A DNA stretch of 59,876 bases, filler included, from 4 parts of 4 records of this genome joined end to end with filler, not necessarily neighbours in it; one strand, 5' to 3'; numbered from the whole stretch's first letter, positions 43,444-59,876 are shown. Program-made: numbers and translations. Notes: generated by a model not told the origin, from the letters alone.

Positions 43444-43543
43444 NNNNNNNNNNNNNNNNNNNNNNNNNNNNNNNNNNNNNNNNNNNNTTAATTAATTAAN
43501 NNNNNNNNNNNNNNNNNNNNNNNNNNNNNNNNNNNNNNNNNNN
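43444..43543. other. Artificial contig spacer
   Basis: N-run with TTAATTAATTAA. Confidence 0.98.
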
Positions 43544-43936
43544 TGAAATAAGCAGCGCAAGTGGTTTGGAGAGTTTTTTATCATTGATACGGGAAGCCAA
43601 GGCGAGCATGGAAGCCAAAAATCCCTTCATATCTGTTGTGCCGCGACCATAATATCGATCGCCCGCAGTGGTTAATTTAAAAGGTGGATATGTCCACTTT
43701 TGACCCTCAACTGTTACAACATCTGAGTGTGCTGAAAGAAGTAAGCCGCCTTCAATCGCTGGCCCAATCTCGGCGTAAATTCCAGCCTTTGTACCGCAAG
43801 GCGCATGCAAACGGGTCACACGAAATTCAAACTGAACAAGAAATTTTTTAACGAAATCAATTAGCTCTAAGTTACTCTTAGTGTTGGTGGTTTCAAACGA
43901 AACCAAAGTATCGAGGATTTCTAATGTTTTTGTCAC
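43544..43936 (-). CDS. argE: ArgE-like M20 deacylase (HinG-like), copy 1, 3' partial
   Basis: LSAHSDVV, YGRGTTDMKGF; paralog of 55549-56700. Confidence 0.8.
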
Positions 43937-44832
43937 TTCATTTCCTCACGGCATAGGTCTAAAAAAGCTGAGTAGATGCGGCGGGTTGTCAACCCTTTGA
44001 GTGAGAGTAATCCGACTGGTAAAGGTGGCACTTCACTTTCCAGTGGTACAAATATCAATGGTTTGCCATCTGGAGCATGTGTGCCTATGGGCCTGTAATT
44101 AATTACTGAATAGCCAAATCCATTTGCAACAAGACTTCTCGCCACAGCAAGATCTTTTGTACGTTCTGCTATTATAGGCCTTGGCCCCGTTCGACTAAAA
44201 AATGATAAAAAATAGTCAGAGCTAAGGGGTAAATCCAGAAGAACCATTGCGTGAACAGTGAGCTGTTCTACCGTTAATATTTTATTGTTTGCAAGGGGGT
44301 GGTCAGGTGCAAGCATAACAAATGGGGGTAGAGATTTTATTGCTTGAAACTCTAAGTCTTTGGGTAAATCTATTGCATAACTTATAGCCAGATCGATATC
44401 ACCTTGACGTAAAGCAGTAAAAATTTCTGATTGCGTTAACTCGCTTTGACTCAATTTTACTGCAGGATGTGCGGCCTCAAAGCTACGCCGCAGTTTTGGG
44501 ACAACAATTTGTGCAAAAGAAACCAAACACCCAAGTTGCAGATGGCCTTGAATAGAATGGGAAACCATACCAGCCATACGCGTAAGTTCGGACGCATCGT
44601 TTAAAACTATCTCGGCTTGAGTTGACAGGGTGCGACCAGCTTCAGTCAAAGATAACCCTTGTGGGCGTCTGCGAACAAACAAAGCAGCACCAAGATCTTT
44701 TTCAAGTTGAGAAAGTGCTGTCGAAATTGAAGGTGAGGACACGTTTAAAATACGACTTGTGGCTGCGATGCTACCTGTTTGAGCAGTTACAGTAAAATAT
44801 TCAAGCTGACGTAAGGTAAATCGTAGTTGTAT
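43933..44832 (-). CDS. LysR regulator (HinK-like), copy 1
   Basis: Frame extends upstream of the ORF call to (ATA)QLRFTLRQLEYF..., completing the HTH; paralog of 52418-53344. Confidence 0.85.
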   Translation of the reverse strand: MQLRFTLRQLEYFTVTAQTGSIAATSRILNVSSPSISTALSQLEKDLGAALFVRRRPQGLSLTEAGRTLSTQAEIVLNDASELTRMAGMVSHSIQGHLQLGCLVSFAQIVVPKLRRSFEAAHPAVKLSQSELTQSEIFTALRQGDIDLAISYAIDLPKDLEFQAIKSLPPFVMLAPDHPLANNKILTVEQLTVHAMVLLDLPLSSDYFLSFFSRTGPRPIIAERTKDLAVARSLVANGFGYSVINYRPIGTHAPDGKPLIFVPLESEVPPLPVGLLSLKGLTTRRIYSAFLDLCREEMK

Positions 44833-44863
44833 TTAGGTATGTTGACGCAGATGGAAATGTCTG

Positions 44864-45538
44864 TCAATCGTCACCAGGAACACCATAAGATGGGGCCTCT
44901 CGTGGGTCAATTGCACGTTGGACATAGGCGTCAAGTTGAGGTTTGTAAATATCCCATGCATTTGCTACCTCTTCGATCGGGCAATTTTTAGTCCAGTCAC
45001 ACCGTAAATCAGCAATAGGCCAAGTCATCTTATCTACAATCTTCATACCTGCCGAATGAACTGGCCCCGCTTCGCCACCGGCAGCTAAACCTGACCGCAT
45101 AGCTGCAATTAGCCTATCTCCAATATGCCCATCAGATGAAATGAATCCATCAACGATTGCTTGGGGGACTCTATCATTGGCCAAAAGGTTTCCGCCCGCA
45201 GCAACGTCTTTTCCCTCAGCTTGCGTCCAAATGCCGAGTGAGTTTGGTCCAGAATGAATGGATGTTAAGCCTTCATTATCAATTACTAGAACTTGTCTAT
45301 ATTCAATGAATTTTCCGATTGATTTAATATCTTGTATGGTTTGCGCAGCAGATAATCCCGTTTGCATTAAATCAAGTGCAAGAGGCCCAAGCGTTGGATC
45401 TGTAACGTTTTGTGATGCGACCGCACCAACTTTTGCACGGGCATACGAACATCGAGCCGCAACAGCGGGTGAAGAAGATGAAATGGCGATGCCAAACATA
45501 CCAGTTTTAGCGCAACGAGCAACGAGTGAAAATGTCAT
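44864..45538 (-). CDS. DUF1028 / Ntn-hydrolase-like protein (HinH-like), copy 1
   Basis: MTFSLVARC..TGMFG, GAVASQ, GNLLAN, DLRCDW. Confidence 0.85.
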   Translation of the reverse strand: MTFSLVARCAKTGMFGIAISSSSPAVAARCSYARAKVGAVASQNVTDPTLGPLALDLMQTGLSAAQTIQDIKSIGKFIEYRQVLVIDNEGLTSIHSGPNSLGIWTQAEGKDVAAGGNLLANDRVPQAIVDGFISSDGHIGDRLIAAMRSGLAAGGEAGPVHSAGMKIVDKMTWPIADLRCDWTKNCPIEEVANAWDIYKPQLDAYVQRAIDPREAPSYGVPGDD

Positions 45539-45954
45539 GCTGGTATTACCGCTGTACCATCAATTTCAACAAGCCATTCAGGTCGTGCGAGCGCCTGCAC
45601 AACGAGACCTGTTGATACAGGGTAAACTCCCTTAATGTATTCTCCCATCGTGCGATAGACCGCCTCACGATGGCGTACATCTGTGATGTATACAACAACT
45701 TTAACAAGATGACTCATATCACCTCCGGTTTCCTCAATAAGTTGTTTAATGTTTTGCATAACTTTGTGTGTTTGTTCGATTGGGTCATGACTTCTTATGT
45801 TAATCGCATTATCTAGATTTTGGGGACATTGACCTCTCAACCAGACGATCTTATCAGAAGCATTAGTCACTACTGCCTGACATAGATCATTATCAAGATT
45901 TTGCTCTGGGTAAGTTTCAGCGGTATTGAATTTGCGGATACGCGTATGTATCAT
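45535..45954 (-). CDS. RidA-family protein (HinL-like), copy 1
   Basis: HTRIRKFNT, LARPEWLVEIDGTA; start moved to ATG 45954 by alignment with copy 2. Confidence 0.85.
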   Translation of the reverse strand: MIHTRIRKFNTAETYPEQNLDNDLCQAVVTNASDKIVWLRGQCPQNLDNAINIRSHDPIEQTHKVMQNIKQLIEETGGDMSHLVKVVVYITDVRHREAVYRTMGEYIKGVYPVSTGLVVQALARPEWLVEIDGTAVIPA

Positions 45955-45962
45955 TTCTATTC

Positions 45963-47060
45963 CTATGTTTGGTAGTGAGCGGCAAGCCAAAGTTGAAAAT
46001 CACGAATTGTTCCCTCATAGTCGTCTTCTGCCAAAGGCCCTGAACCTGCATGATAAGAGCTGAGTGAAACTTGTAACCGTTCAAGTTTTTCACGATCTTC
46101 TTGGTTCACTTTTTGCCAAAGAGCAACCCGATCAGCAATCGTGCTTTCATCAAGGTCATTGCTGTAGGTTGAAAGTGTCCACTTCACTTTGATCTGTCCT
46201 GCATTGAGAGGGAATATGCTTAATGAGACTAAAAGGCTAGCTGCTTGGCTTACGACCTGAGTTGGGAAAATCGAAAACAATGTTGAGCGTAGGCGCTCAT
46301 CTTCTGTCAGATTTGGTCCGCCAAGTCCGCGTTGCGGAGTATTTTTTGGGTAATTTGCTGCATAAGAAGTAAATCCATACCCAGTCAAAAGTTTGCGAGC
46401 GAGACCTGTAGGTGTGTAATCATGAAGAGTTTCAGGATGTACGACTGAAAGATGATATCCTTCCATAAAGTTCTCAACAAGGCATTTCCAATTAGTATTC
46501 CAGATCTCCTCTTCGACATGGGCAAGTTTGAATTTTTCAGTCTCGTAATTTGAAAGCAAATCAGTGAGGCTAGGGTGCTCAAACGGTTTGACTTCTGCGC
46601 TTAAGTTTACATAAATGAAACCATTCCAAATGTGGCTATTGTGCCTATACAGACCACAATTTTTAGATTCAAAGCCAGCATTTTTCATCCTTGGTGCGCG
46701 TAAAAGTATGCCATCAAGATCGTATGTCCAAGCATGGTAAGAACAAATGAAACGTTTTGTACTACCTGTACCCTCAGCAAGTGGCATCCCGCGATGGCGG
46801 CATACATTAGCTAGAACTACTATTTCAGCATCGCTTTGACGCACAATAAGCAAAGGTTCATTTAAAAGCTGAGCAGTGAAGAAATCTCCTGAATTAGGGA
46901 TTTCATCAACACGTCCAAGGCTATGCCATCCGCGGCGCAAGATTGTTTCTACTTCCTCATGAAAATATTCTTCATCCGTATAAAACGCTCCTGGAATACC
47001 CATTGCGCGATCGGATGGTAAAGATGCAATATCTTGAAGAATGGTTGAAAGTGATGACAT
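45963..47060 (-). CDS. Rieske non-heme iron oxygenase alpha subunit
   Basis: CRHRG...CSYHAW; NWKCLVENFMEGYHLSVVH; QED. Confidence 0.9.
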   Translation of the reverse strand: MSSLSTILQDIASLPSDRAMGIPGAFYTDEEYFHEEVETILRRGWHSLGRVDEIPNSGDFFTAQLLNEPLLIVRQSDAEIVVLANVCRHRGMPLAEGTGSTKRFICSYHAWTYDLDGILLRAPRMKNAGFESKNCGLYRHNSHIWNGFIYVNLSAEVKPFEHPSLTDLLSNYETEKFKLAHVEEEIWNTNWKCLVENFMEGYHLSVVHPETLHDYTPTGLARKLLTGYGFTSYAANYPKNTPQRGLGGPNLTEDERLRSTLFSIFPTQVVSQAASLLVSLSIFPLNAGQIKVKWTLSTYSNDLDESTIADRVALWQKVNQEDREKLERLQVSLSSYHAGSGPLAEDDYEGTIRDFQLWLAAHYQT

Positions 47061-47062
47061 TG

Positions 47063-48229
47063 CTAATCCTCCATAATAAAATTTGGTTTAAATGAAGAAT
47101 CCATTCGGCTCATTAAATATTGTGCAAAATCAAAATTTGGGCGTTCAAGATGAGATAAATGGCCTGGTTTAGCACCATCTGATGAAAGGCCACGAAAGAC
47201 TTTTTCTGTACACCCCTTGTCTTCAATATTCACTTGATCAAGTAAAGATTTTAGGTCGCTTAAATTTTTTTGAGCTTCTTTGTCGTCTTTATAATCATTA
47301 GACATCCCACCGCCAAAGCGGATGTGAACCTTAGAGGGTCCCTTTGGGTGGAGGCTCAGATACCAAAAATACCCAGGTGTGAGCGTAATAAGTAAACTAG
47401 GATATATTGCTAAAAGATAAGTTGTACGCCGCTCTTCACCCTTGAGACGGTTATTATCTTGATGTGCCATTGCAATTCGTAAAGACTTGTCTTTTAAGAT
47501 CGTATGATAATTAAATGCCTTACGTCCCGGTGGACAAATCATCTCATCAAGCTTGGATAAGCCTCCAATTGTGCCAGCATGGCAAACCGGTAAATGATAA
47601 CTCTCCATAAAATTCTCGGCTAAAATTTTCCAATTGGTATCCCATAAATGTTCTTCAAAAAAGGTTTCAGAATAGTTACTCATGTCGTAACCCTTAACCA
47701 ATTGTTCTACCTCAACGAGTTCTTTGGAAACTGGCTTTGCATCCGGATTAAGATTAATAAACACCCAGCCAAGCCATTCTTCGCAAGCAATTGTAGGTAA
47801 TCTGTATTGATTTTTACAAAAGGCCTTGTTTGCGTTCATGGCGGGTGCTCCGCGCAAACTTCCATCCAAATTATAGGTCCAGGCATGGTATGGGCAGACT
47901 ATAACTTTAGCCGATCCACGCCCACTTAGTAAGGTGGACATTCGATGTCGACATACATTTGACATTGCACGAAGATTGTTATCGTGATCGCGAAGTATAA
48001 TCACTGGCTGTTCTGCAAGATCACAAGTTACATAATCACCAGGCTTTGCTAAAGCGCTCGCTCTACCTACGCAAAACCAATCTTTTTTGAAGATTTGTTC
48101 AAGCTCTGCTTTGTTAAATTCTTGCGAGGTGTAAACTTGAGGTGGCATAGCTCGAGATTCTTCAAATGATGTAGATACATTCGCACGCAAAGCGTCAATT
48201 TGAACTTGTGCTGGATGGTCAATGTTCAT
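47063..48229 (-). CDS. Rieske non-heme iron oxygenase alpha subunit
   Basis: CRHRM...CPYHAW; NWKILAENFMESYHLPVCH; IED. Confidence 0.9.
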   Translation of the reverse strand: MNIDHPAQVQIDALRANVSTSFEESRAMPPQVYTSQEFNKAELEQIFKKDWFCVGRASALAKPGDYVTCDLAEQPVIILRDHDNNLRAMSNVCRHRMSTLLSGRGSAKVIVCPYHAWTYNLDGSLRGAPAMNANKAFCKNQYRLPTIACEEWLGWVFINLNPDAKPVSKELVEVEQLVKGYDMSNYSETFFEEHLWDTNWKILAENFMESYHLPVCHAGTIGGLSKLDEMICPPGRKAFNYHTILKDKSLRIAMAHQDNNRLKGEERRTTYLLAIYPSLLITLTPGYFWYLSLHPKGPSKVHIRFGGGMSNDYKDDKEAQKNLSDLKSLLDQVNIEDKGCTEKVFRGLSSDGAKPGHLSHLERPNFDFAQYLMSRMDSSFKPNFIMED

Positions 48230-48243
48230 TTATTACTCCTTTG

Positions 48244-48294
48244 TCACAAAGCTACCGGACGGTAATCACGATAATTATGCTGAATTTCTATTTG
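48244..48294 (-). pseudogene. 3' remnant of a second flavin monooxygenase paralog
   Basis: QIEIQHNYRDYRPVAL-stop parallels the C-terminus QIAIQHTYRSYKP of the adjacent gene. Confidence 0.6.
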
Positions 48295-49537
48295 GCTTAT
48301 ATGATCGGTAGGTGTGTTGGATTGCAATCTGGTCGCAAATGAACTTTGCGTCATGCCAAACACCCCAGATAAAGGATGAACCTCGGCGTGATTGCCAAGG
48401 CAACCCAAGAAAATATATTCCTGGTTCTTGGGACACCCCACGCTGATGAAGTGGTTTGCCGAGTTCATCGAAAGTATTTACGTCAAGCCAGTTATAATCA
48501 ACTTTATAGCCTGTGGCCCACAAAACTGTTGTGATCCCTGCTTTTGACAAATTAAGCTTTCGTGTTGGACTAGTCAAACAGTCAGGATCAGGCCAGCGTT
48601 TTCGCTCTTCGAGATCTATTGGTAAATTAAGATTGTGACTTTTGACATAGGCGTCAGCCTCATCAAGTAACCCCAAATGATTTATGTCTCCTTTTTTTAT
48701 ATTCTTTTCCAGGTCATCAGCAAAATAAAAAGTATTTTTTTCATATTTTTCTGCCATTCCAACAAGATGGATTCCACCAAATGCAAAACGTCTGAAATCA
48801 ACAGTTTTACCACCATCCGCACCACTGACAGCAATTGTAACATGTTCTGAGCCTAGGGGAGGAGTTTGCATATCCCATTTACCAAGAACACCCAACCACC
48901 ACACAAAGTCACGTCCGCGGTATCTGCGAGGGGGGCGATCATGTGCGCCAACTGAAAGATACACCTTGCGTCCAGAATTCATTAGCTCCTCAGAAATTTG
49001 CGCTCCTGAAGATCCTGCGCCAATCACCAAAACTGCGCCCTCAGGTAGCTGTTCAGGGTTTCGATATTCATTTGAGTGCATTTGATTAATAGGTGCACAT
49101 TTAGGAATTAGTGGTGGAATAACTGGGTCCTGAAAAGCTCCTGTTGCAGCTATAATATGACATGCTTCAAAGTTACCTGCGCTCGTTGTAACATGAAACC
49201 CGGTCCCACCAGGTATTCTTGTCACGTGCTCAACATTGATGCCACAGCGTACTGGTGCTTTGATTTGACCCACATAGTCAACAAAGTAACTTGCAACATC
49301 CTCTTTTGAAATAAACGCATCATGGTTGGGATCGTCAAAATTGCGACTTGGAAAGCGATCATGCCATGCAGGTCCGTTAGAAACTAGCGAGTCCCATCGA
49401 GCTGATCGCCATTTTTCAGCGATACGATCACGTTCAAGTACGACATGTTGAATTCCATGGTTGGTCAGGTGCTCACTTGCTGCGATTCCAGCCTGGCCAG
49501 CTCCGACCACAAGCGTGTCTACCTTTTCAACTACCAT
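48275..49537 (-). CDS. Flavin-containing monooxygenase (HinF-like, imidazole-acetate ring oxidation)
   Basis: GAGQAG, MHSNEYRNP, IGAGSSG, WATGY; neighbours RidA, DUF1028 and ArgE. Confidence 0.8.
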   Translation of the reverse strand: MVVEKVDTLVVGAGQAGIAASEHLTNHGIQHVVLERDRIAEKWRSARWDSLVSNGPAWHDRFPSRNFDDPNHDAFISKEDVASYFVDYVGQIKAPVRCGINVEHVTRIPGGTGFHVTTSAGNFEACHIIAATGAFQDPVIPPLIPKCAPINQMHSNEYRNPEQLPEGAVLVIGAGSSGAQISEELMNSGRKVYLSVGAHDRPPRRYRGRDFVWWLGVLGKWDMQTPPLGSEHVTIAVSGADGGKTVDFRRFAFGGIHLVGMAEKYEKNTFYFADDLEKNIKKGDINHLGLLDEADAYVKSHNLNLPIDLEERKRWPDPDCLTSPTRKLNLSKAGITTVLWATGYKVDYNWLDVNTFDELGKPLHQRGVSQEPGIYFLGLPWQSRRGSSFIWGVWHDAKFICDQIAIQHTYRSYKPNRNSA

Positions 49538-49622
49538 GATCTTACCCTTTTCAAGCTTTATGGTTTGAGTAAGAATAGGTGATGAATTTTATAAGCGAAA
49601 ACAGTAATTCATTCAGCACTGC

Positions 49623-49637
49623 TTAGGCTGAACCTAA
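49623..49637. promoter_or_regulatory. LysR-type operator TTAGG-N5-CCTAA
   Basis: TTAGGctgaaCCTAA in the divergent promoter; T-N11-A core. Confidence 0.7.
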
Positions 49638-49669
49638 AGTGACCATTAAAGCCTAATAATTCAAAGCAC

Positions 49670-49684
49670 TTAGGTAAATCCTAA
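49670..49684. promoter_or_regulatory. LysR-type operator TTAGG-N5-CCTAA
   Basis: TTAGGtaaatCCTAA. Confidence 0.7.
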
Positions 49685-49801
49685 TTAGAAGTGAGGAAGT
49701 CAATTCTTTTTGAATGCTCAATTTCTAATATGCATGTTTGAAAGGTTTTTCACAGTAGCAAAAAAATCTGCGCTGTTTCATCATCGCACAAAGGAATTAG
49801 C

Positions 49802-50218
49802 ATGGTCCATACCCGCATTCGCAAATTCAATACATCAGATACATATCCTGAGCAAATGCTCGACAACGATCTTTGTCAAGCTGTAGTGACATCTGGAGGC
49901 AAAACCGTTTGGCTGCGGGGTCAATGTCCCCAGAACCTTGACGATGCAGTGAATTTGGCCAGTCATGATCCTGTTGAACAAACACACAAGGTTATGCAAA
50001 ATATTAGGCAATTGATTGAAGAGGCCGGTGGTGAGATGAAGCATTTGGTCAAGATTGTAGTTTACATTACCGATGTGCGGCACCGCGAAGCTGTTTACCG
50101 AACTATGGGAGAATATATAAAAGGAGTATATCCTGTGTCGACTGGCCTTGTTGTGCAAGCATTAGCACGTCCCGAGTGGCTTGTCGAAATTGATGGTACT
50201 GCGGTGATACCAGAATGA
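49802..50218 (+). CDS. RidA-family protein (HinL-like), copy 2
   Basis: Close paralog of 45535-45954. Confidence 0.87.
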   Translation: MVHTRIRKFNTSDTYPEQMLDNDLCQAVVTSGGKTVWLRGQCPQNLDDAVNLASHDPVEQTHKVMQNIRQLIEEAGGEMKHLVKIVVYITDVRHREAVYRTMGEYIKGVYPVSTGLVVQALARPEWLVEIDGTAVIPE

Positions 50219-50892
50219 CCTTTTCACTTGTTTCCCGTTGCCCAGATACTGGAATGTTTGGTGTAGCGATTTCGTCGTCTTCTCCAGCAGTGGCAGCACG
50301 TTGTTCTTATACTCGTGCAGGAGTTGGCGCTGTTGCTTCACAGAATATTACTGACCCAACTTTGGGACCACTTGCGCTCGATTTTATGGCACAAGGTTTG
50401 AACGCCGAAAAAGCCATCATGCTTGTTCGTGAGCAAGGAAAATTTATCGAGTACAGACAGGTGCTTGTGGTTGATTACGAAGGCCGAACTGCAATTCATT
50501 CAGGACCAAATTCGCTGGGTATTTGGACACAGGCTCAGGCCAAAAACGTGGCAGCGGGTGGCAATCTTTTGGCAAATGACACTGTTCCACAAGCCATCAT
50601 TGATGGCTATGAAACAGCCAAAGGTCATATTGGTGATCGTTTGATAGCAGCTATGCGTGCAGGACTTGCCGCAGGAGGTGAAGCGGGCCCGCTGCATTCT
50701 GCAGGCATGCAGATTGCAGATAAAGATAGCTGGCCTATTGCTGATTTGCGCTGTGATTGGACAGAGGATTGCCCGATTGAAAATATTGCAACGGCTTGGA
50801 AAATCTATAAGCCGCAACTGGAGGCCTATATCCAACGTGCACATGATCCACGCGAGGCGCCGTCTTATGGTGTACCCGGTGACGAAGATTGA
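50215..50892 (+). CDS. DUF1028 / Ntn-hydrolase-like protein (HinH-like), copy 2
   Basis: Close paralog of 44864-45538. Confidence 0.87.
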   Translation: MTFSLVSRCPDTGMFGVAISSSSPAVAARCSYTRAGVGAVASQNITDPTLGPLALDFMAQGLNAEKAIMLVREQGKFIEYRQVLVVDYEGRTAIHSGPNSLGIWTQAQAKNVAAGGNLLANDTVPQAIIDGYETAKGHIGDRLIAAMRAGLAAGGEAGPLHSAGMQIADKDSWPIADLRCDWTEDCPIENIATAWKIYKPQLEAYIQRAHDPREAPSYGVPGDED

Positions 50893-50903
50893 AAGGAGAT
50901 ACT

Positions 50904-52400
50904 ATGCTCGATAATACACATCAGGACTGGAAAGCTCGTGCAGATGGCTTGATCCTACGCAACCAGGCATTTATTGATGGCAGATTTGTTGATGCGATCT
51001 CTGGTAAGACATTTGACAGCATCAACCCTGCGAATGGTGCAGTGCTTACTTCAGTTGCTGAATGTGACACTGAAGACGTAAACCTAGCTGTGGCTGCAGG
51101 CAGACGCGCATTTAATGCGGGCTATTGGTCGCGGATGGCACCTGGCGATCGTAAAGTTATCATGCTAAAGTTAGCTGATCTTATCCGGGCTAATCTTGAA
51201 GAAATGGCGCTTCTCGATAGTCTTGATATGGGAAAATTGATAACAGACGCGGTTACTGTTGACGCACCGGGATCTGCACATTTTTTCCAGTGGTATGCAG
51301 AATGTATTGATAAAATTTATGATGAAGTCGCTCCCACTGGCCCTGGGGACCTTGCCCTTGTAAGGCGTGTACCGCTAGGTGTTGTTGGTGCTGTAACACC
51401 ATGGAATTTCCCTCTTGATATGGCTACATGGAAAGCTGCTGCCGCCCTTGCAGCAGGAAATTCTGTGGTATTGAAGCCTGCTGAACAATCACCACTTTCC
51501 GCACTTCGACTTGCTGAGCTCACCGCTGAGGCGGGCATACCAGCTGGGGTATTTAACGTTGTGCCAGGGTATGGTCAGACGGCAGGACGTGCACTTGGAT
51601 TGAATATGGATGTGGACTGTCTTGCATTTACGGGATCGACTGCCATTGGTAAGATGTTCATGCAATACTCAGGCCAATCCAACCTTAAGCAAATCTGGCC
51701 TGAAACTGGTGGCAAGAGCCCTAATATCGTCTTTGCAGATAGTGAGAATTTAGAGGAAGCAGCTGATATGGCAGCATTTGGCATCTTCTTTAACCAAGGA
51801 GAAGTTTGTTCTGCAAACTCACGCCTTTATGTGGAGAGATCTATCAAACAAGAGTTTGTTGCCCTCCTTAAGGCGCGTGCCGAAGTAATGCAACCTGGTG
51901 ACCCACTTGATCCCAAATCAAAAATGGGTGCTATCGTTGATGAAAAACAAACAAACGGCATAATGCGGTTTGTAGAGGCTGGTAAGCAAACAGCAAATCT
52001 TGTGACAGGTGGACAAAGAACTTTTGTGAATGGCAAAGGGTGCTTTGTTCAACCGACAATTTTTGATGATGTCACGCAGGAAAACCCACTGGCACGTGAT
52101 GAAATATTTGGCCCTGTATTGTCAGTAATTTCTTTTGATACTGAAGAAGAAGCAGTGCGTATGGCAAACGATTCTATTTATGGCCTTGCCGCTTCTGTCT
52201 GGACCGATAATTTAAGTCGGGCATGCCGTGTTGCGGATAATTTGAATGTGGGTACTGTTTCAGTCAATACCGTGGATGCACTTTCAGCCCAGACACCCTT
52301 TGGTGGAATGAAGCAGTCGGGTTTTGGCCGTGACCTGTCACTCCATTCACTTGACAAATACACAGCGTTAAAGACTACTTGGATTAAGTATCAATCCTGA
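50904..52400 (+). CDS. Aldehyde dehydrogenase (PuuC-like; candidate imidazole-acetaldehyde dehydrogenase)
   Basis: PWNFP, KPAEQSP, FTGST, ETGGKSP, GEVCSA, EIFGPV; start at the ATG after AAGGAG. Confidence 0.88.
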   Translation: MLDNTHQDWKARADGLILRNQAFIDGRFVDAISGKTFDSINPANGAVLTSVAECDTEDVNLAVAAGRRAFNAGYWSRMAPGDRKVIMLKLADLIRANLEEMALLDSLDMGKLITDAVTVDAPGSAHFFQWYAECIDKIYDEVAPTGPGDLALVRRVPLGVVGAVTPWNFPLDMATWKAAAALAAGNSVVLKPAEQSPLSALRLAELTAEAGIPAGVFNVVPGYGQTAGRALGLNMDVDCLAFTGSTAIGKMFMQYSGQSNLKQIWPETGGKSPNIVFADSENLEEAADMAAFGIFFNQGEVCSANSRLYVERSIKQEFVALLKARAEVMQPGDPLDPKSKMGAIVDEKQTNGIMRFVEAGKQTANLVTGGQRTFVNGKGCFVQPTIFDDVTQENPLARDEIFGPVLSVISFDTEEEAVRMANDSIYGLAASVWTDNLSRACRVADNLNVGTVSVNTVDALSAQTPFGGMKQSGFGRDLSLHSLDKYTALKTTWIKYQS

Positions 52401-52417
52401 TCTAAAGGACAGCTGCC

Positions 52418-53344
52418 ATGTTAAGATTTACACTGCGCCAATTGGAATACTTTATTGCCGTTGGCGAAATGGGCAGCATTGCTCTAGCTGCTGAGAAGGT
52501 AAATGTTTCATCTCCATCAATTTCAGCTGCGATAACCCAGCTGGAACAGGAATATGGTCTACCCCTTTTTGTGCGTCAACATGCTCAAGGATTATCACTA
52601 ACACTAGCTGGGCGCGAGATGTTCAAGCAGGCTAAAATTGCTTTAGGTGAAGCTGTTAGACTTGTAGATCTTGCTGGTGATATATCTGGTAATGTGCAGG
52701 GGCCATTGTCAATTGGTGGGCTGCTTACATTTGCTCAGGTCGTTCTACCGGCATTAAGAGCAAGTTTTGAAAAACTTTTCCCTGATGTCAGAGTAACCCA
52801 GCATGAATTAGATCAGGCACAGATTTTCAGCAAATTGCGACGCAGCGAAATTGATGTCGCTATTACATATGATCTTGATGTGCCGAATGATTTGAGCTTC
52901 GAACCGATCGCTTCCCTTCCACCATATGCAATGTTCTGTGATAATCATCCCCTTGCAAACCGTGCGAGCGTAACAGTCAAGGATCTTTTGCCTCACCGGA
53001 TGGTCTTGCTTGATTTGCCATTCAGTTCAGAGTATTTTTTGTCGTTTTTTGGATCAACAGGAGAAAAACCAAATATTGCAGAGCGCACTCGTGATGTGGC
53101 CGTTATGCGCAGTCTTGTTGCAAATGGTTTTGGATTTTCAATAGCTAATATACGACCTTTAAACGACTTATCTCCTGACGGAAAGCCGTTGCATTTTGTT
53201 CCCTTGGATGGAAACGCAAGACCAATGAAAATAGGACTTTTATCGTCGCGTGATGCAGGCAACGTCAATACTATTAGGACATTCATTGGGCATTGCAAGG
53301 CGGAACACCAAAGTGGACTTATCCCTGGGCTGAACCTTGATTGA
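52418..53344 (+). CDS. LysR regulator (HinK-like), copy 2
   Basis: MLRFTLRQLEYF HTH plus substrate-binding domain. Confidence 0.9.
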   Translation: MLRFTLRQLEYFIAVGEMGSIALAAEKVNVSSPSISAAITQLEQEYGLPLFVRQHAQGLSLTLAGREMFKQAKIALGEAVRLVDLAGDISGNVQGPLSIGGLLTFAQVVLPALRASFEKLFPDVRVTQHELDQAQIFSKLRRSEIDVAITYDLDVPNDLSFEPIASLPPYAMFCDNHPLANRASVTVKDLLPHRMVLLDLPFSSEYFLSFFGSTGEKPNIAERTRDVAVMRSLVANGFGFSIANIRPLNDLSPDGKPLHFVPLDGNARPMKIGLLSSRDAGNVNTIRTFIGHCKAEHQSGLIPGLNLD

Positions 53345-53365
53345 TCTTTAGATCCTATATTTACC

Positions 53366-53380
53366 TTAGCCGTTTCCTAA
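53366..53380. promoter_or_regulatory. LysR-type operator variant TTAGC-N5-CCTAA
   Basis: TTAGCcgtttCCTAA upstream of the dehydrogenase. Confidence 0.65.
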
Positions 53381-53462
53381 TCAGCGGTTTTGCATCATTG
53401 TCTGTTGGTTACACTATGTTCGCGTTATCTTTGTTTAAACTCAATGACTAGGAGATGCACTG

Positions 53463-55544
53463 ATGCGCGATTTGATACGTGACCCACGATATGATGTATT
53501 GTTTGAGCCTATGGACATTGGTCCTGTCACATCGAAAAATCGGTTCTATCAGGTGCCACATTGCAACGGGGGTGGGTACCGCGATCCGTCGGCAGCTGCT
53601 GAGATGCGTGGGGTAAAGGCACAAGGTGGCTGGGGGGTCATTTTCACTGAACAATGTGAGATACACCATACTTCTGAGATTACGCCCTTCATAGAACTTC
53701 GTCTTTGGGAAGATAAAGACATCCCAATGTTGCGCAAAATGTCAGATAAAATGAAAGAGTACGGAGCCTTGGCTGGAATTCAACTGGCTTATTCGGGAAT
53801 CAACGGTCCAAACCTCTATTCTAAAGAAGTGCCAATGGCTGTTTCAGCTGCACCTATTCGTACGTTTACAAACGATCCCTTACAGGCACGTGCGCTTGAT
53901 AAGACTGATATTCGTGATTTACGTCGATGGTTTATAAATGCCGCCAAGCGTTCTAAAGAGGCTGGGTTTGATCTGATCTGTCTTTATGGGGCACACGGTT
54001 TTGGAATTTTTCAACACTTCCTTAGCCGTGCAACGAATCATCGCACTGATGAATATGGTGGTAGCCTCGAGAACCGTGCGCGTTTTGTTAATGAAGTGAT
54101 TTCTGATATGAAGGACGCCGTTGGCGACAATATGGGCATCACTTTGCGGGTGTCACTAGATGAAACCATTGGAGAACTAGGATTTTCCAACTCAGAAGTG
54201 CGCGACTTCATTGAGATGAACCGCGATCTACCTGACCTTTGGGATTTGGCGCAAGGTACATGGGAAGATTGTTCAGGCCCATCGCGCTTCAAAGAAGAGG
54301 GAGCTCAAGAACAGTTAGTGCGTGGTATCCATGAGTTGACTGATAAACCCATTGTTGGCGTGGGGCGTTTCACCTCGCCTGATGTGATGACTAAAATGAT
54401 CCGCTCTGGCACACTTGATTTTATCGGTTGCGCGAGACCTTCCATTGCCGATCCATTCTTACCCAAGAAAATTGAAGAAGGGCGGATTGAGGACATCCGC
54501 GAATGCATTGGCTGTAATATTTGTATTACGGGCGACATGACTATGTCCATAAGTCGATGCACGCAAAATCCGACTTTCATGGAGGAGTGGCGCAAAGGCT
54601 GGCACCCAGAGCAGATGAACGTGAAAGGTAAAAGCGAAAACGTTCTTGTTGTTGGTTCTGGTCCTGCGGGACTTGAAGCAGCACGTGCATTGTCTGAGCG
54701 TGGATACGATGTAGCAATAGCCGAAGCGGACACTGTGATTGGTGGGCGTGTAACACATGAGCGTAAATTGCCTGGCCTGTCTGCATGGGGCCGAGTTATT
54801 GATTATCGAGAATACCAGATCAGCCAAAAGCCTAATGTCGAGACTTACTTTGATAGTGAACTGGACTCAGATAATATCCTTGAATTTGGGTTTCAAAATA
54901 TTTGTATTGCCACTGGTGCAAAGTGGCGAGTGGATGGTGTGAGCCGGCAACATGTTGTCCCGATGCCAATGGATAGTGCGATGCCAATCTATACACCTGA
55001 TGATATTATGTCTGGTAAAAAGTTATCGGGAAAAGTGGTGATTTATGATGACGACCATTACTATATGGGCGGTGTTATGGTCGAACTACTTATTTCGGAA
55101 GGTTGTGACGTTACGATAATAACACCCTCGGCTTATTTGTCTGATTGGACTGTGAATACGTTAGAGCAACATGCGATTCATAAAAAATTGGCTGAGATGG
55201 GTGCAAAAATCGTTCTCAACCGTGGTGTTACACAAATCGCTGTGGGCAATGTCGTGTCTGATTGTGTTTATACAGGCATGATACAGAACTTTGAGTGTGA
55301 CGCAGTTGTGGTAGTTGCCTCCAAATTGGAAAATAATAGTGTCTTCAATATGCTCAAAGAACGTGAGATGGAATGGGCCGATGCAGGTATAAAATCAGTC
55401 AAATTGATTGGTGATGCAAATGCACCTGGTCCAATTGCTTGGGCAACTTATGCGGGACATCGTTATGCACGTGAGCTGGATGGTGAGGATATTGCTGACA
55501 ACTTGCCATTCCGTAGAGAGATTACACAACTGGCAGTGGATTGA
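53463..55544 (+). CDS. Histamine dehydrogenase-like iron-sulfur flavoprotein (TMADH family)
   Basis: KNRFYQVPHCNG.GYRDPSA (flavinylated Cys), PFIELRLW, YGAHG, CIGCNIC-x11-C; closer to recalled Nocardioides histamine dehydrogenase than to TMADH. Confidence 0.85.
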   Translation: MRDLIRDPRYDVLFEPMDIGPVTSKNRFYQVPHCNGGGYRDPSAAAEMRGVKAQGGWGVIFTEQCEIHHTSEITPFIELRLWEDKDIPMLRKMSDKMKEYGALAGIQLAYSGINGPNLYSKEVPMAVSAAPIRTFTNDPLQARALDKTDIRDLRRWFINAAKRSKEAGFDLICLYGAHGFGIFQHFLSRATNHRTDEYGGSLENRARFVNEVISDMKDAVGDNMGITLRVSLDETIGELGFSNSEVRDFIEMNRDLPDLWDLAQGTWEDCSGPSRFKEEGAQEQLVRGIHELTDKPIVGVGRFTSPDVMTKMIRSGTLDFIGCARPSIADPFLPKKIEEGRIEDIRECIGCNICITGDMTMSISRCTQNPTFMEEWRKGWHPEQMNVKGKSENVLVVGSGPAGLEAARALSERGYDVAIAEADTVIGGRVTHERKLPGLSAWGRVIDYREYQISQKPNVETYFDSELDSDNILEFGFQNICIATGAKWRVDGVSRQHVVPMPMDSAMPIYTPDDIMSGKKLSGKVVIYDDDHYYMGGVMVELLISEGCDVTIITPSAYLSDWTVNTLEQHAIHKKLAEMGAKIVLNRGVTQIAVGNVVSDCVYTGMIQNFECDAVVVVASKLENNSVFNMLKEREMEWADAGIKSVKLIGDANAPGPIAWATYAGHRYARELDGEDIADNLPFRREITQLAVD

Positions 55545-55548
55545 GCCT

Positions 55549-56700
55549 ATGAAGCTGACACTTGAGGTTTTGGAGAGATTGGTTGGGTTTGATACAGTAA
55601 GTGGCAAACCAAATGTAGAGATAATAGCATTTATTCAGAACTTTCTGGAAACTCGTGGTGCTCGATGTACACCCTTGCCATCCAAGCAAACTGGAAAGCT
55701 TGGACTATATGCAGAGATTGGGCCGCAATCGTCTGGTGGTATTTTGCTCTCTGGTCATACCGATGTTGTTTCCGTAAAAGGGCAAGACTGGACCCAAAAT
55801 CCTTTTTCTCTAACCCATAAATCGGATCGGCTCTATGGGCGTGGTACTACGGACATGAAGGGCTATGTCGCTTGCATGTTGCGATCAGCTGATATTGCAA
55901 GTCGGAGGCAAATGAAAGAACCGCTCAAGTTAGTTTTTTCTTATGATGAAGAAATTGGTTGTGTAGGTATTCAGGAAATGATGGGCAGTTTGGCTCAAAT
56001 TATTGGAACCCCAAGGGCTTGCTTTGTTGGAGAGCCGACAGAGATGCAGGTGGCTATTGGTCACAAGGGAAAAGTAGAACTTGAAGCGGTATGTTTTGGT
56101 CAGGCTGGACATTCGGCGCTTGCGCCCAATTTTGTCAGTGCATTGCATATAGCTGCCGACTTGATCACAGGCTTGAAGGATATGCAGCGATGGTTTGTAG
56201 ATTATGGTGCGCAGGATATTGCCTATGATATTCCTTATAATACGTTGCATGTTGGTAAGATGTGGGGTGGTGCTGCCCTGAACATGATTCCAGAACGTGC
56301 AATGATGAACTTTGAATACCGCCACCTTGCTGTGGATGCCCCAGCATTAATAATGGATCGGCTACGAGTTATGTCGGAAAAAATTCTGTTACCCTACCGC
56401 GCCGTCTTTGCAGATTCCAAGATAGAGATTAATCAAATCAACGCCTATCCGGGTCTTGATGTTTCAGCCTCTTCTGATGCATCAAAGCTGGCACAGAAAC
56501 TCCTTAAGGTCAAAAAAACAATCAAAGTTACTTTTGGAACTGAAGCTGGTTTTTTTGACGAGCTTGGCATTCCTACCGTTGTTTGTGGTCCTGGTTCCAT
56601 GGCAAGGCAGGGGCACAAAGCAGACGAATACATTAATCATAGTCAGCTTATTTCATGTAACCGGATGTTGGCTGGAATAATTGAAGAGCTGAGTGCATAA
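55549..56700 (+). CDS. argE: ArgE-like M20 deacylase (HinG-like), copy 2
   Basis: LSGHTDVV, GRGTTDMKG, YDEEIGC, GEPT, HKG, GTEAG, GHKADE; start moved to ATG 55549. Confidence 0.85.
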   Translation: MKLTLEVLERLVGFDTVSGKPNVEIIAFIQNFLETRGARCTPLPSKQTGKLGLYAEIGPQSSGGILLSGHTDVVSVKGQDWTQNPFSLTHKSDRLYGRGTTDMKGYVACMLRSADIASRRQMKEPLKLVFSYDEEIGCVGIQEMMGSLAQIIGTPRACFVGEPTEMQVAIGHKGKVELEAVCFGQAGHSALAPNFVSALHIAADLITGLKDMQRWFVDYGAQDIAYDIPYNTLHVGKMWGGAALNMIPERAMMNFEYRHLAVDAPALIMDRLRVMSEKILLPYRAVFADSKIEINQINAYPGLDVSASSDASKLAQKLLKVKKTIKVTFGTEAGFFDELGIPTVVCGPGSMARQGHKADEYINHSQLISCNRMLAGIIEELSA

Positions 56701-56971
56701 TGTTTGATCTACGTGGACTGGATCAAGAGGTGCTTGTTGTTAATCGAATTCATTGATTTGTGTCACACGGCAAAATCTTATGGCAGCTTAATTTAGCATA
56801 AGATGAGTTCATCGTCGATTTAATACAATAAATTTTATCCTTAGAAGTCCTTAGAATACGGAAAGATAAGGTTTTTGTGGATGATCTTGGGCTTTAGGTA
56901 AGTCAATGAAGGCATGATACAACTATATAGAAAATAAACCATAAAGTTCCGTATGCAGGCAAGATTTAATC

Positions 56972-57106: not shown

Positions 57107-58177
57107 ATGAACAACAACATCGCAGTTGATATCCAGAATGTTACCAAAATGTACGGTGCATTCGCCGCCTTAAAAGATGTGAATCTTGATATTCGAGACA
57201 ATGAATTCTTCACGCTGCTTGGGCCATCAGGCTGTGGTAAAACCACTTTGTTACGTACAATTGCTGGTTTCGAAGATATTAACAATGGCGCGATTGTTCT
57301 TTATGGACAAAATATTGCTGATTTGCTGCCAAACGAGCGACCAGTCAACACAGTTTTCCAGCAATACGCCTTATTTCCCCACATGAATGTTACACAAAAT
57401 ATCATGTTTGGATTGCTCCGTTTAGGTCATGATAAAGCCACTGCGAAAATCCGTGTGGGTGAAGTGCTCGAACTTGTTCAGCTCTCAGATTTTGCAGACC
57501 GAATGCCAAATCAGCTATCTGGTGGTCAACAACAACGTGTCGCTCTTGCACGTGCTCTTGCACCTAGCCCAAAGGTACTGTTACTTGATGAACCTTTGTC
57601 GGCACTAGATCTAAAGCTGCGACAAGCGGTGCGGTTAGAATTGCAACAAATACAACACCAAACTGGGATCACGTTTATTTTCGTCACCCACGATCAAGAG
57701 GAAGCACTGACCATGTCAGATCGCATTGCAGTGATTGAAGGTGGGCAAGTGCAACAAGTAGGAACTGCGCGTGACATATATGAAGCACCAAAAAACAAGT
57801 TCGTGGCTGATTTCATAGGTGAAACCAATTTACTTGAAGTGAACGTCACAGATCTTGCAGGAGGTAAGGGCTCATGCATTCTGCCTGGTGGTGTGCAGAT
57901 TACTTGCCCCGCCGCAGATGGAGCACATGCAGGCCCAGGCCATTTGTCCGTGCGTCCTGAACGCATTGCAATAAATACAACAGACCGCGGCCTTGTTCAG
58001 GGTCATGCAACACGGCACATTTATCTTGGTACAGATGTGCACGTAGAAGTGACCTTGACCCGTGGTGAAAAAGTTACCGTTCGCATGCAAAACTCTGCAC
58101 AAATTCAGATACCCGAAGTTGGTCAAGCTGTTGGCCTAGAATTCGAAGCAGACGCTGCTCGTCTGTTGGTGGACTGA
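57107..58177 (+). CDS. potA: Polyamine-family ABC transporter ATPase
   Basis: [36 protein letters not shown] tail. Confidence 0.88.
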   Translation: MNNNIAVDIQNVTKMYGAFAALKDVNLDIRDNEFFTLLGPSGCGKTTLLRTIAGFEDINNGAIVLYGQNIADLLPNERPVNTVFQQYALFPHMNVTQNIMFGLLRLGHDKATAKIRVGEVLELVQLSDFADRMPNQLSGGQQQRVALARALAPSPKVLLLDEPLSALDLKLRQAVRLELQQIQHQTGITFIFVTHDQEEALTMSDRIAVIEGGQVQQVGTARDIYEAPKNKFVADFIGETNLLEVNVTDLAGGKGSCILPGGVQITCPAADGAHAGPGHLSVRPERIAINTTDRGLVQGHATRHIYLGTDVHVEVTLTRGEKVTVRMQNSAQIQIPEVGQAVGLEFEADAARLLVD

Positions 58178-59097
58178 TGGCAGCAAGTCCACAGCACACA
58201 CCAACCTCAAGCACCAGCACCTATGCTGGCTTTGGAATACCACTGATCCTACCCGCTTGGATCATAATTGGATTTTTTCTGGTGCTGCCAGTTGGGATAA
58301 TGATGATTTATTCTTTCCTGACCAAAGAATTTCGTGGCGGTGTGATTTGGGAATTTTCACTGAGTGCCTATGACCAGTTTTTCTTTTACCGTGGTCTTTT
58401 TGGGGACGAAGCGCCGAAAATTGAATGGACCTATATAATCATCTTCTGGCGTTCGATTTGGCAAGCGGCGGTTGCTACAGTGTTCTGCCTTATCATCGGC
58501 TTCCCTACAGCATGGTTCATTGCTACCCGCACGGGTCGCAACCGTTCCATCTGGTTATTTTTAATTACCATCCCCTATTGGGTGAACCTACTGATCCGGA
58601 CAATTTCGATGAAATTTCTAATTCGCGACAATGGCCCAATGAATGAACTCTTAATCAACAGTGGTCTGATCTCTGAACCAATTCACATCATCAATACTAA
58701 TCTGGCTGTCCAACTTGGCCTATTCTATTCCTACTTGCCGTTCATGGTGTTGCCAATTTATGCTGCTGTTGAACGCTATAATTTTGCGCTGTCAGAGGCC
58801 GCTGCTGACCTTTACGCCTCGCGAACTATAATCTTGACACAAATTATTCTTCCTACTGTGAAGCCAGGGATCATTGCAGGATGCATTCTTGTATTTGTAC
58901 CAAGTCTTGGGGCTTTCCTTGCACCGGACCTATTGGGTGGAGCAAAGAACTTCATGATTGGCTCTCTGATCGAAGAGCAATTCAAAGGTGCTGCTGGCAA
59001 TTGGCCCTTTGGTGCGGCTGCCTCGATGATCCTTTTATCGATGGTACTAGTGGTTCTCACACTTTACGCTCGCCAACAAACAAGGGAGCAGGGATAA
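58177..59097 (+). CDS. potB: Polyamine-family ABC transporter permease (PotB-like)
   Basis: [32 protein letters not shown]. Confidence 0.85.
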
Positions 59098-59876
59098 TGG
59101 TTTCTAAAACCCTTGACTTGCGCCGCTTTCCTGGTTTCTTACCACTGACATTTTTGTGTCTATTTCTGCTTTATACGCCGTTAATTATTGTTATGATTTA
59201 TTCCTTCAATGACAGTGCTTCAATCACCCGATGGGACAGCTTATCCCTGCGGTGGTATCAAGAAGTATTTTTTGGGGTCGAAGCTCCCAAATTCAGAACA
59301 GCCACTTACAATTCGGTCACAATTGCTCTGCTCGCTGCAACATCTGCCACTATTATCGCGACGATGGCCGCCACCGCTATGCTTCGCTCTGGAAAGTTTC
59401 GTGGAAAATCTGCCAGTTTTGCGCTGATCAATCTGCCTCTAATGGTGCCAGAAATTGTGACTGCCGTCGCCACGCTCATCTTTTTCTCGGCTATTGGTTT
59501 TACCGCTGGCTACCTTACTATTGTGCTGGCACATATTGTTTTTTGTATCCCTTTTGCCTATTTGCCTATCGCGGCGAGGATGCAAGGGATTGAAGAAACA
59601 TTCGAACAAGCCGCTCAAGATCTATATGCCACGCGATTTCAAACCTTCCGTCTAATACTTCTCCCTCTCATGACACCAGGAATCATGTCTGGATTCTTAC
59701 TGGCATTTATCATTTCTCTTGATGACTTTATCATCACCAATTTTGTCAAAGGTGCAGGTGTCGAAACTCTGCCTACTGCAATTTATGGTGCCGTGAGACA
59801 AGGCATCAAACCCAATATTATGGCAATTTCTACACTACTACTCGTAGTATCCGTGGTCTTTGTCACCCTGTCCTAT
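59097..59876 (+). CDS. potC: Polyamine-family ABC transporter permease (PotC-like), 3' partial
   Basis: Own translation [14 protein letters not shown]...[14 protein letters not shown]...SLRWY...SLDDF; runs off the window, so absent from the ORF track. Confidence 0.85.

Follow-up and report, generated by a model that had tools for sequence, protein, structure and literature searches.

What are two Rieske oxygenases doing inside a marine bacterial operon whose other genes resemble those for the degradation of histamine? The question is raised by a 59,876-nt stretch of DNA (hereafter, the window), in which the genes for two Rieske proteins, RieA and RieB, occupy positions 45963 to 48229, between a HinF-like FAD/NAD(P) monooxygenase (FMO) and a RidA-type deaminase. 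A preliminary description of the window had proposed that the two enzymes remove N-methyl groups from methylated imidazoles. Histamine catabolism was worked out in Pseudomonas without a Rieske enzyme, and a hin-type cluster containing RieA and RieB represents an addition to it. The reading that we tentatively favour, while giving it less than even chances, is that RieA and RieB are sequential oxidative N-demethylases that would feed imidazole-4-acetate (ImAA) into the histamine/ImAA pathway.

RieA (47063..48229, minus strand, 388 aa), which we consider the core member of the pair, matches the Pfam domains Rieske (E 2e-21) and Ring_hydroxyl_A (E 6e-22), and the accessory member RieB (45963..47060, minus strand, 365 aa) matches the same two domains (E 1.5e-19 and 2.5e-22, respectively). 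With 31% identity over 348 columns, they are as divergent as the preliminary description had stated. The Rieske cluster motif CxH...CxxH is present in both translations, with CxH..CxxH found in 92 of 93 homologues, and the iron ligands H212, H217 and D337 of RieA and H203, H208 and D322 of RieB are invariant in the family alignments. Judged from these sequences, both are alpha subunits of Rieske non-heme iron oxygenases with a His-His-Asp triad. The Glu previously pointed out at the bridging position (MESYH in RieA, MEGYH in RieB) does align with the bridging Glu205 of CntA, RieA ENFMESYH being matched to CntA DNYMECYH, and it is invariant in both clades. The longer motif ENFMESYHLP.CH is invariant in 37/37 members of the RieA clade, ENFME[GS]YHLSVVH occurs in 9/9 members of the RieB clade, and all of these (37/37 and 9/9) have Phe at the position of CntA Tyr203. 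No open reading frame (ORF) for a beta subunit, ferredoxin or reductase was found in the 16.3-kb contig that carries the pair (43544-59876); for a beta subunit and a reductase, this had been noted before for the region in view, which ends at the contig boundary.

Group V of the Rieske oxygenases, which acts on quaternary-ammonium substrates, is divided into two subgroups in the available excerpts of PMC7948474. In subgroup Va, which includes CntA, choline monooxygenase and OxyBAC, position 203 is Tyr or Phe and makes a pi-cation contact, and the reaction is C-N cleavage or chain oxidation, while in subgroup Vb, which comprises the demethylases GbcA, BmoA and Stc2, position 203 is Asn and the substrate carboxylate is bound to the iron. 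The roles of the bridging Glu and of the aromatic residue at 203 in CntA are documented in the same excerpts, and a Cys-x-x-Cys pair beside the iron site (C206/C209 in CntA) is ascribed to "some" group V enzymes in the accessible part of PMC10952381. Within the Protein Data Bank (PDB), CntA is the best solved relative of RieA by sequence (132.6 bits). Likewise, a profile built from 44 family members scores highest against CntA (213 bits), then against 3n0q, a Ruegeria protein (199 bits), and Stc2 (197 bits), with the classical dioxygenases at 164 bits or less. For the AlphaFold (AF2) model of RieA (pLDDT 93.7), Foldseek ranks CntA first (TMq 0.79) and Stc2 next, and for that of RieB (pLDDT 94.4) the best matches are Stc2 (3vca), 3n0q and CntA (TMq 0.80-0.87). 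The placement near CntA and Stc2 is based on these profile scores and fold matches, as the homologue tree contained no reference enzymes. In fold, profile score and motifs, RieA and RieB thus resemble alpha-only monooxygenases of the group V type, probably with an alpha3 assembly. They do not carry the Asn at position 203 that defines Vb, whereas Stc2 and 3n0q, which read ENNRECYH, do.

On the sequence evidence, RieA and RieB are orthologues of neither GbcA nor CntA. The GbcA equivalog model (NCBIfam NF058607) was rejected, with 151.2 and 154.9 bits against a cut-off of 670 and a match to the N-terminal half only, and a GbcA-family search of five carrier genomes returned nothing above the cut-off and no pointer to a shared reductase. 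A close relationship to the caffeine demethylases was not found either (NdmA 54 and 40 bits, NdmB 40 bits, against RieA/RieB). The names of all 120 listed RieA homologues are generic, and a search of the ESM Atlas gave only generic Rieske clusters. The Glu had been called typical of N-methyl Rieske enzymes. It is indeed the bridging residue of the CntA type in the excerpts cited above, but it is also present in most of the distant homologues that are not linked to hin genes and, thus, does not by itself point to N-methyl substrates.

In Pseudomonas, the pathway comprises the HinC aminotransferase, the HinD aldehyde dehydrogenase, the HinF FAD monooxygenase (EC 1.14.13.5), the HinL enamine deaminase, the HinH amidase and the HinG amidase (EC 3.5.1.8), with HinK as a LysR regulator responding to ImAA. 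The Hin proteins listed in the available parts of PMC8231116 and PMC6467879 include no Rieske enzyme, which agrees with the earlier statement that the described hin clusters lack Rieske genes. On the contig studied here, FMO, RidA, a DUF1028 protein, an M20 peptidase, an aldehyde dehydrogenase (ALDH) and LysR fit the roles of HinF, HinL, HinH, HinG, HinD and HinK, respectively, and are co-located with a histamine-oxidising enzyme, the histamine dehydrogenase HADH, which scores 1234 and 816 bits against 6de6 and 3k30, respectively, two PDB entries with the name histamine dehydrogenase. Since HADH is encoded in the divergent operon, the label "hin-like" given to this locus is right. We infer orthology to the hin genes from family membership, gene order and HADH, and the equation of HinH with the DUF1028 protein from gene order and the "amidase" label; a DUF1028 search of 14 control genomes gave no match in Pseudomonas. 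The genes FMO-RieA-RieB-RidA-DUF1028 form a single minus-strand operon, adjacent genes being either overlapping or no more than 46 nt apart.

The linkage of RieA to these genes was examined in 79 loci, which came from a scan with one genome per species and whose fetched flanks were searched for hin genes (loci and genomes are labelled L and G, respectively). FMO, RidA or DUF1028 were present in the flanks of 17 of the 37 full-length RieA homologues (56% identity or more), another 4 of the 37 had an M20 gene only, and RieB stood beside RieA in 8. More distant homologues of RieA (38-43% identity) are found in RidA-Rieske-DUF1028 sandwiches (L037, L040, L044; also L042). In a quick maximum-likelihood tree of 91 rows, in which a row was called linked if a hin gene lay within 6 kb, the RieA clade (37 rows, SH-aLRT 100) contains 15 linked and 22 unlinked rows, interspersed; 4 of the 8 rows of its sister clade and 7 of the 9 rows of a separate RieB clade are linked.

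Presence and absence were then scored in 201 genomes sampled from the family to which the L014 genome belongs (labelled Roseobacteraceae in the tree), with orthologue thresholds of 55% identity or more for RieA and 56% or more for RieB. RieA was found in 52 genomes, FMO in 68, the hin-type DUF1028 in 71 and RieB in 15. RieA occurs together with FMO in 47/52 (Fisher p 1e-23) and with DUF1028 in 50/52, and all 15 RieB genomes fall inside both the RieA and the FMO sets. The Fisher p values for co-occurrence range from 1e-8 to 1e-28 and ignore the relatedness of the genomes. FMO is present without RieA in 21 genomes and RieA without FMO in five. Counted by hand, FMO lies within 5 kb of RieA in 25/47 genomes, DUF1028 within 5 kb of RieA in 27/52 and RieB within 3 kb of RieA in 11/15. 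Two of the five RieA genomes without FMO, G018 (L100) and G130 (L101), have an HpaB-type two-component monooxygenase beside RidA-DUF1028 as their sole candidate for a ring hydroxylase; G100 and G166, in which no hin-type DUF1028 was found, and G076 complete the five. Taking the FMO and HpaB cases together, a flavin hydroxylase is present in every RieA genome whose DUF1028 region was inspected. HpaB together with a flavin reductase also adjoins RieA in L036, L040, L044, L103 and L115, and the HpaB-type enzyme may be a non-orthologous replacement of, or a partner for, the imidazole-acetate monooxygenase. An HpaB-type monooxygenase is found beside RidA-DUF1028 in L114 as well (L103 belongs to G074, L114 and L115 to G193), and in G193 it and FMO are neighbours in one operon.

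The association extends beyond this family. On the chromids of Caballeronia sp. NK8 (L104) and Paraburkholderia largidicola (L106), the genes are arranged as argE<-DUF1028<-RidA<-FAD-oxidoreductase | LysR->RieA(57%)->ABC importer, in which the order oxidoreductase-RidA-DUF1028-argE reproduces hinF-L-H-G. This Burkholderiaceae unit has a four-gene ABC importer and neither an amine oxidase nor an ALDH in the cluster, and RieA matches of 56-58% identity come from ten Paraburkholderia, five Caballeronia and one Burkholderia record. The linkage between RieA and hin genes is conserved across Alpha- and Betaproteobacteria; its absence had been named beforehand as an outcome that would count against the proposed role. 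In Paraburkholderia, one FNR-type reductase gene lies 4.5 kb from RieA but is paired with a VanA-type oxygenase.

Rieske and hin genes are interleaved in single operons (RieA-RidA-DUF1028-RieB; FMO-RieA-RieB-RidA), and RieA is adjacent to HADH in L003, L005, L018, L031 and L103. In L014, a TAXI-TRAP receptor gene and DctQM run straight into RieA-RidA-DUF1028-M20, and in L002 an SBF (bile-acid/sodium-symporter-family) transporter gene lies upstream of RieA. Cultured candidate carriers include Defluviimonas aestuarii JCM 18630, with both RieA and RieB, and Seohaeicola zhoushanensis KCTC 42650, with RieA alone, besides Caballeronia sp. NK8. Besides the window, two sets of genes are present in G001, G074, G193 and G104. 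In G001, the Rieske set, with its own RidA, DUF1028 and M20, is far from the FMO set (0.43 Mb, 2.93 Mb), and a second RidA/DUF1028 set lies 11 kb from FMO; in G074, the Rieske set includes a second histamine-dehydrogenase paralogue. A PLP-dependent (group II) decarboxylase is encoded between HADH and M20 in L005 (15445-16779) and adjoins RieA in L009 (8175-9566); it may be a histidine decarboxylase linking histidine to the pathway. On plasmid pW43C of Parasedimentitalea marina (L105), RieA (73%) and RieB (65%) stand side by side with no hin genes within 9 kb, their neighbours being a polar-amino-acid ABC importer, TetR, two amine-oxidase-like flavoproteins, an aminomethyltransferase-family protein, an aminotransferase and GNAT. 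In an alphaproteobacterial contig (L047), the sister group of RieB is represented by four paralogues within ~13 kb, with 41-43% identity to RieB, and hin genes are absent.

In the favoured scheme, a reductase encoded elsewhere would pass electrons to the Rieske cluster, and the mononuclear iron of the adjacent subunit would receive them through the conserved Glu. The Phe, which is likewise conserved, would stack on the cationic ring of an N-methylated imidazole, an iron-oxo species would hydroxylate the N-methyl carbon, and the resulting carbinolamine would collapse to formaldehyde and the demethylated imidazole. RieA could thereby convert a mono-N-methyl imidazole-acetate to ImAA, and RieB could act on another methyl isomer or on the 1,3-dimethyl imidazolium. 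ImAA would then be taken to aspartate by the flavin monooxygenase (HinF-like or, in some genomes, HpaB-type), followed by RidA, DUF1028 and the M20 deformylase. The type of reaction, the electron donor, the sequence of the two steps (RieB before RieA) and the substrates are inferred, and the substrates named, methyl-imidazole-acetate and zooanemonin, are guesses.

The distribution of the genes fits such a scheme, given that RieB occurs within the RieA set, RieA almost always together with the lower pathway, and the lower pathway often alone, which is the pattern expected of successive peripheral feeder steps. A one-step conversion to ImAA would also make the Burkholderiaceae unit self-sufficient, since it has no amine oxidase or ALDH. 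The carboxylate-type TRAP and SBF importers that some genomes encode directly upstream of RieA suggest an acid as the substrate. Moreover, the DUF1028 proteins of Rieske sets and those of Rieske-free histamine sets do not form separate clades (label shuffles scored as low in 162/500), the two copies in G193 being nearly identical, and as they are no separate lineages, both types of set probably converge on the same intermediates before the DUF1028 step. Together, the group V fold, the Burkholderiaceae unit, the importers and this convergence make N-demethylation of ring-methylated imidazole-acetates the simplest reading. A full-text literature search, covering only a minority of subscription journals, gave no description of a Rieske oxygenase in histamine or imidazole-acetate catabolism, nor of microbial demethylation of methyl-imidazole-acetates. 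That RieA and RieB are the first ring-nitrogen demethylases for imidazoles, and regiospecific ones (N-tau versus N-pi, or mono- versus di-methyl imidazolium), we regard as doubtful.

A number of results weigh against demethylation. The sequential demethylation feeding HinF that had been put forward initially agrees with the nested distribution of RieB in RieA in FMO/DUF1028 but not with the Phe at position 203, a residue that marks RieA and RieB as candidates for the C-N-cleaving subgroup Va and not for the known demethylases of Vb. The Cys-x-x-Cys pair corresponding to Cys206/Cys209 of CntA is absent (RieA reads ESYHL, RieB EGYHL), and reductase genes were not found beside RieA, whether in the contig or at any of the annotated loci. 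The 22 of 37 RieA-clade rows that have no hin gene within 6 kb have neighbours that look random; around 20 unlinked RieA loci these were unrelated housekeeping genes, and neither a reductase nor a recurring partner was among them. Two of the 52 RieA genomes have neither FMO nor DUF1028. In the window and in the other two-set genomes (G001, G074, G193, G104), the Rieske set has its own hydroxylase, RidA, DUF1028 and regulator, an arrangement that could be read as a parallel pathway, for example, for a substituted histamine with a later Rieske step. Genes for formaldehyde or folate metabolism do not recur near RieA/RieB, the sole case being the aminomethyltransferase 4 kb from RieB in L105. Methylated imidazole-acetates in seawater are not on record in the literature searched, in which the matches listed were biomedical and none concerned zooanemonin. 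Finally, the homarine pathway, the single marine route described for an N-methyl heteroaromatic betaine, involves no Rieske enzyme and, as described in the accessible part of PMC13236597, keeps its N-methyl group through ring opening to N-methylglutamate.

Three points that speak against ring demethylation would favour an oxidation of the side chain, in which RieA (and RieB) would act in a CntA-like manner on histamine, or on its N-alpha-methylated or quaternary forms, by hydroxylating the carbon adjacent to the side-chain nitrogen, giving ammonia or methylamines and imidazole-acetaldehyde, which ALDH would take to ImAA; as a variant, demethylation of the side-chain nitrogen would enable HADH to act. 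Phe in place of CntA Tyr203 is characteristic of Va, and the Va enzymes named in the literature excerpts all make aldehydes next to a cationic nitrogen. In Caballeronia and Paraburkholderia, RieA shares its operon with an ABC importer of the PotA/PotD type, and an importer of this type is also encoded close to RieA in Pseudosulfitobacter. Of the 68 genomes with FMO, 22 have both RieA and HADH, 25 RieA only, 15 HADH only and 6 neither (Fisher p 0.07), as if one enzyme could replace the other, but this value is weak and ignores genome relatedness, and RieA does coexist with HADH in those 22 genomes and is adjacent to it in the five loci listed above. In L032, RieA directly follows a class-III aminotransferase. 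Yet RieA is found beside FMO/HpaB, RidA and DUF1028 far oftener than beside ALDH, the window's ALDH had homologues, none exceeding 38% identity, at just 3 of the first 79 loci, and the TRAP and SBF importers encoded beside RieA point to acids. Overall, we consider a side-chain oxidation a serious rival, if an unlikely one. If RieA were instead a ring-carbon hydroxylase of a parallel pathway, acting on an imidazole acid that the flavin enzyme refuses (e.g., an N-substituted one) with no prior demethylation, its product would directly be the intermediate for opening and deimination by RidA and DUF1028. The sandwiches of RidA, a RieA homologue and DUF1028 even in the sister clade of 38-43% identity are in keeping with this, as are the several genomes, such as G001, in which the Rieske set comes with a separate RidA, DUF1028 and M20 and lies at a distance from the FMO set. 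It is nevertheless distinctly unlikely, given that FMO is kept in 47/52 RieA genomes, with an HpaB-type enzyme in G018 and G130, that the DUF1028 proteins of Rieske sets are no separate lineage, and that the solved close relatives all oxidise sp3 carbons next to a cationic nitrogen and not ring carbons.

Demethylation could also take place one stage earlier, on histidine derivatives (hercynine, or N-pi- or N-tau-methylhistidine from anserine or balenine) that would then be decarboxylated to histamine and degraded by the cluster, and Stc2-like chemistry on amino-acid betaines is known from the excerpts available. The PLP-dependent decarboxylase next to RieA or HADH in L005 and L009, the polar-amino-acid importer adjacent to RieA-RieB in Parasedimentitalea and a urocanase gene 1.4 kb from RieA in L031 are consistent with this. 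We judge it very unlikely, as the decarboxylase occurs in only 2 annotated loci and most clusters, including those of Burkholderiaceae, have none, and as free histidine is normally degraded via the Hut pathway. The 22 unlinked rows of the RieA clade, the Parasedimentitalea pair and the generic database names would, lastly, be explained if RieA and RieB had no role in imidazole metabolism and acted on an unrelated betaine or aromatic compound, merely sharing regulation or genomic islands with hin genes; this is highly improbable in view of the co-occurrence in 47/52 and 50/52 genomes, the adjacency in Alpha- and Betaproteobacteria and the interleaving of both kinds of gene in single operons.

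Among known systems, one of the closest is CntA of Acinetobacter baumannii (PDB 6y8j and others), an alpha-only protein with a Rieske and a catalytic domain, the bridging Glu and an aromatic residue at 203, for which a peroxide shunt has been shown; in comparisons of RieA by sequence, profile and fold, it ranks first. However, RieA is only 25-27% identical to it, neither RieA nor RieB has its Cys206/Cys209 pair, RieA has no adjacent reductase of the CntB type, and the genomic context consists of histamine/ImAA genes and not of carnitine genes. NdmA and NdmB of Pseudomonas putida CBB5 are reportedly a paralogous alpha-only Rieske pair that takes methyl groups off different ring nitrogens of an imidazole-containing heterocycle, and RieA and RieB may, by analogy, follow the same two-enzyme logic. 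NdmA and NdmB belong to another Rieske subfamily and have a dedicated reductase, NdmD, and their similarity to RieA/RieB is only distant (54 bits or less). With Stc2 and GbcA/BmoA (Vb), RieA and RieB would share the proposed class of reaction, oxidative N-demethylation at a cationic nitrogen, and Stc2 is the best fold match of RieB; the Vb enzymes differ in having Asn where RieA/RieB have Phe, and in the excerpts of PMC7948474 they ligate the substrate carboxylate to iron. The hinFLHG/hinDAC/hinK genes of Pseudomonas putida U and P. aeruginosa encode the same enzyme roles in the same order, with a LysR regulator, but histamine is oxidised there by the HinC aminotransferase and here by HADH. 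In addition, L, H, K and G are duplicated here and two Rieske oxygenases inserted, none being among the Hin proteins listed in the parts of PMC8231116 and PMC6467879 available. A comparison with the published homarine operon had been suggested. That operon (homABCDER; PMC13236597) likewise serves marine bacterial catabolism of an N-methylated heteroaromatic compound, and both systems occur in Roseobacters, but its gene families differ and, in the available text of the article, the word Rieske occurs 0 times.

The known substrates of group V are aliphatic quaternary amines only (carnitine, choline, betaines, benzalkonium). If methylated imidazoles are dealkylated by RieA and RieB, a new class of substrate would extend the group to aromatic N-methyl cations, and a new route would open by which marine bacteria take up imidazole nitrogen from animals and plankton into their metabolism. 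Roughly one in four Roseobacteraceae, as well as some Burkholderiaceae, would then turn methylated histamine metabolites or zooanemonin-like imidazolium betaines into ImAA and then aspartate. Even with another substrate, this is a conserved, unnamed Rieske family, present in 52/201 sampled Roseobacteraceae genomes and near-identical in seawater metagenomes of many studies, and its tight, nested linkage leads to a short list of compounds with which an uncharacterised family is directly testable.

As to the remaining genes of the contig, the operon of the Rieske pair begins with FMO (48275..49537, minus strand, 420 aa; Pfam Pyr_redox_3, E 8.5e-25), which scores 365 bits to TIGR04046, below the cut-off of 498, and is 61% identical to the oxidoreductase heading the FMO-RidA-DUF1028-argE operons in Caballeronia. 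It continues past RieA and RieB with RidA1, a HinL-like enamine/imine deaminase (45535..45990, minus strand; Pfam Ribonuc_L-PSP), whose true start is likely the Met at 45954, as its alignment with RidA2 begins at residue 13, and with DUF1028_1, a HinH-like amidohydrolase (44864..45538, minus strand; E 2.3e-59). The HinK-like regulator LysR1 (43933..44835, minus strand; Pfam LysR_substrate and a partial HTH_1) and the HinG-like deformylase M20a (43546..43936, minus strand; Pfam Peptidase_M20 on its first 146 aa) follow. Since M20a meets the N-linker at the contig end, it is cut off and not decayed. LysR1 has no ATG, GTG or TTG where its HTH should begin: the frame reads stop-IQLRFTLRQLEYF, this read-through IQLRFTLRQLEYF matches MLRFTLRQLEYF of LysR2 (window 44742-44862), and the first canonical start, a GTG at 44742, would shorten the DNA-binding domain by ~29 residues. 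This may reflect decay of the regulator, a start codon of a non-canonical type or an error in sequencing.

The divergent histamine operon starts with RidA2 (49802..50218, plus strand; Pfam match), followed on the same strand by DUF1028_2 (50215..50892; Pfam, E 1.4e-61), the HinD-like ALDH (50889..52400; Pfam Aldedh, E 1.2e-161; NCBIfam PuuC, 590 bits, below cut-off), the HinK-like LysR2 (52418..53344; HTH_1 and LysR_substrate), HADH (53463..55544; 693 aa, an iron-sulfur flavoprotein of the TMADH family) and a complete HinG-like M20b (55408..56700 as the longest ORF; NF005710, 450 bits, over cut-off). This ORF opens with a TTG and overlaps the HADH gene by 137 nt. As its family matches set in at residue 50, M20b probably begins at ~55.55 kb, just after the HADH stop. 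An ABC importer (57107..59876, plus strand; Pfam ABC_tran, TOBE_2 and BPD_transp_1) consists of a PotA-like ATPase (57107-58177) and permeases at 58177-59097 and 58881-59876, the latter open at the window end. All sizeable ORFs of the contig are thereby accounted for. The two sets are paralogous, with protein identities of 86% for RidA, 78% for DUF1028, 52% for LysR and 50% for M20, and 74% identity at the DNA level in the RidA-DUF1028 stretch; one includes FMO, RieA and RieB, the other ALDH, HADH and the ABC importer, and there is a single FMO on the contig. Scans for promoters and terminators gave results at chance level (14 found versus 13.7 expected, and 6 versus 5.9, respectively).

The window joins four contigs, with N runs around the linker TTAATTAATTAA at 10313-10412, 23346-23445 and 43444-43543, each joint being a pair of 44-N runs flanking TTAATTAATTAA. 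G+C is 41-48% in the last contig versus 23-42% in the other three, and the nearest relatives of its genes are Rhodobacterales; the four contigs may come from more than one organism, e.g., a mixed bin. The stretch 44800-49600 is found almost word for word (0.94-0.95 of the sampled words) in 13 marine or seawater DNA runs, and six metatranscriptome runs contain 58-81% of it, DNA and RNA runs together representing 17 studies. Contigs of four RNA runs are unbroken across DUF1028-RidA-RieB-RieA, which shows the presence of the sequence only, neither transcription nor a single transcript. In contigs of three metatranscriptome runs, 18 other letters stand in place of 48296-48350, and past 48351 the same contigs diverge strongly from the window, being unlike it after 48448 (the 3' end of the FMO gene). 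Given that these contigs diverge from the window beyond 48295, related strains differ upstream of RieA.

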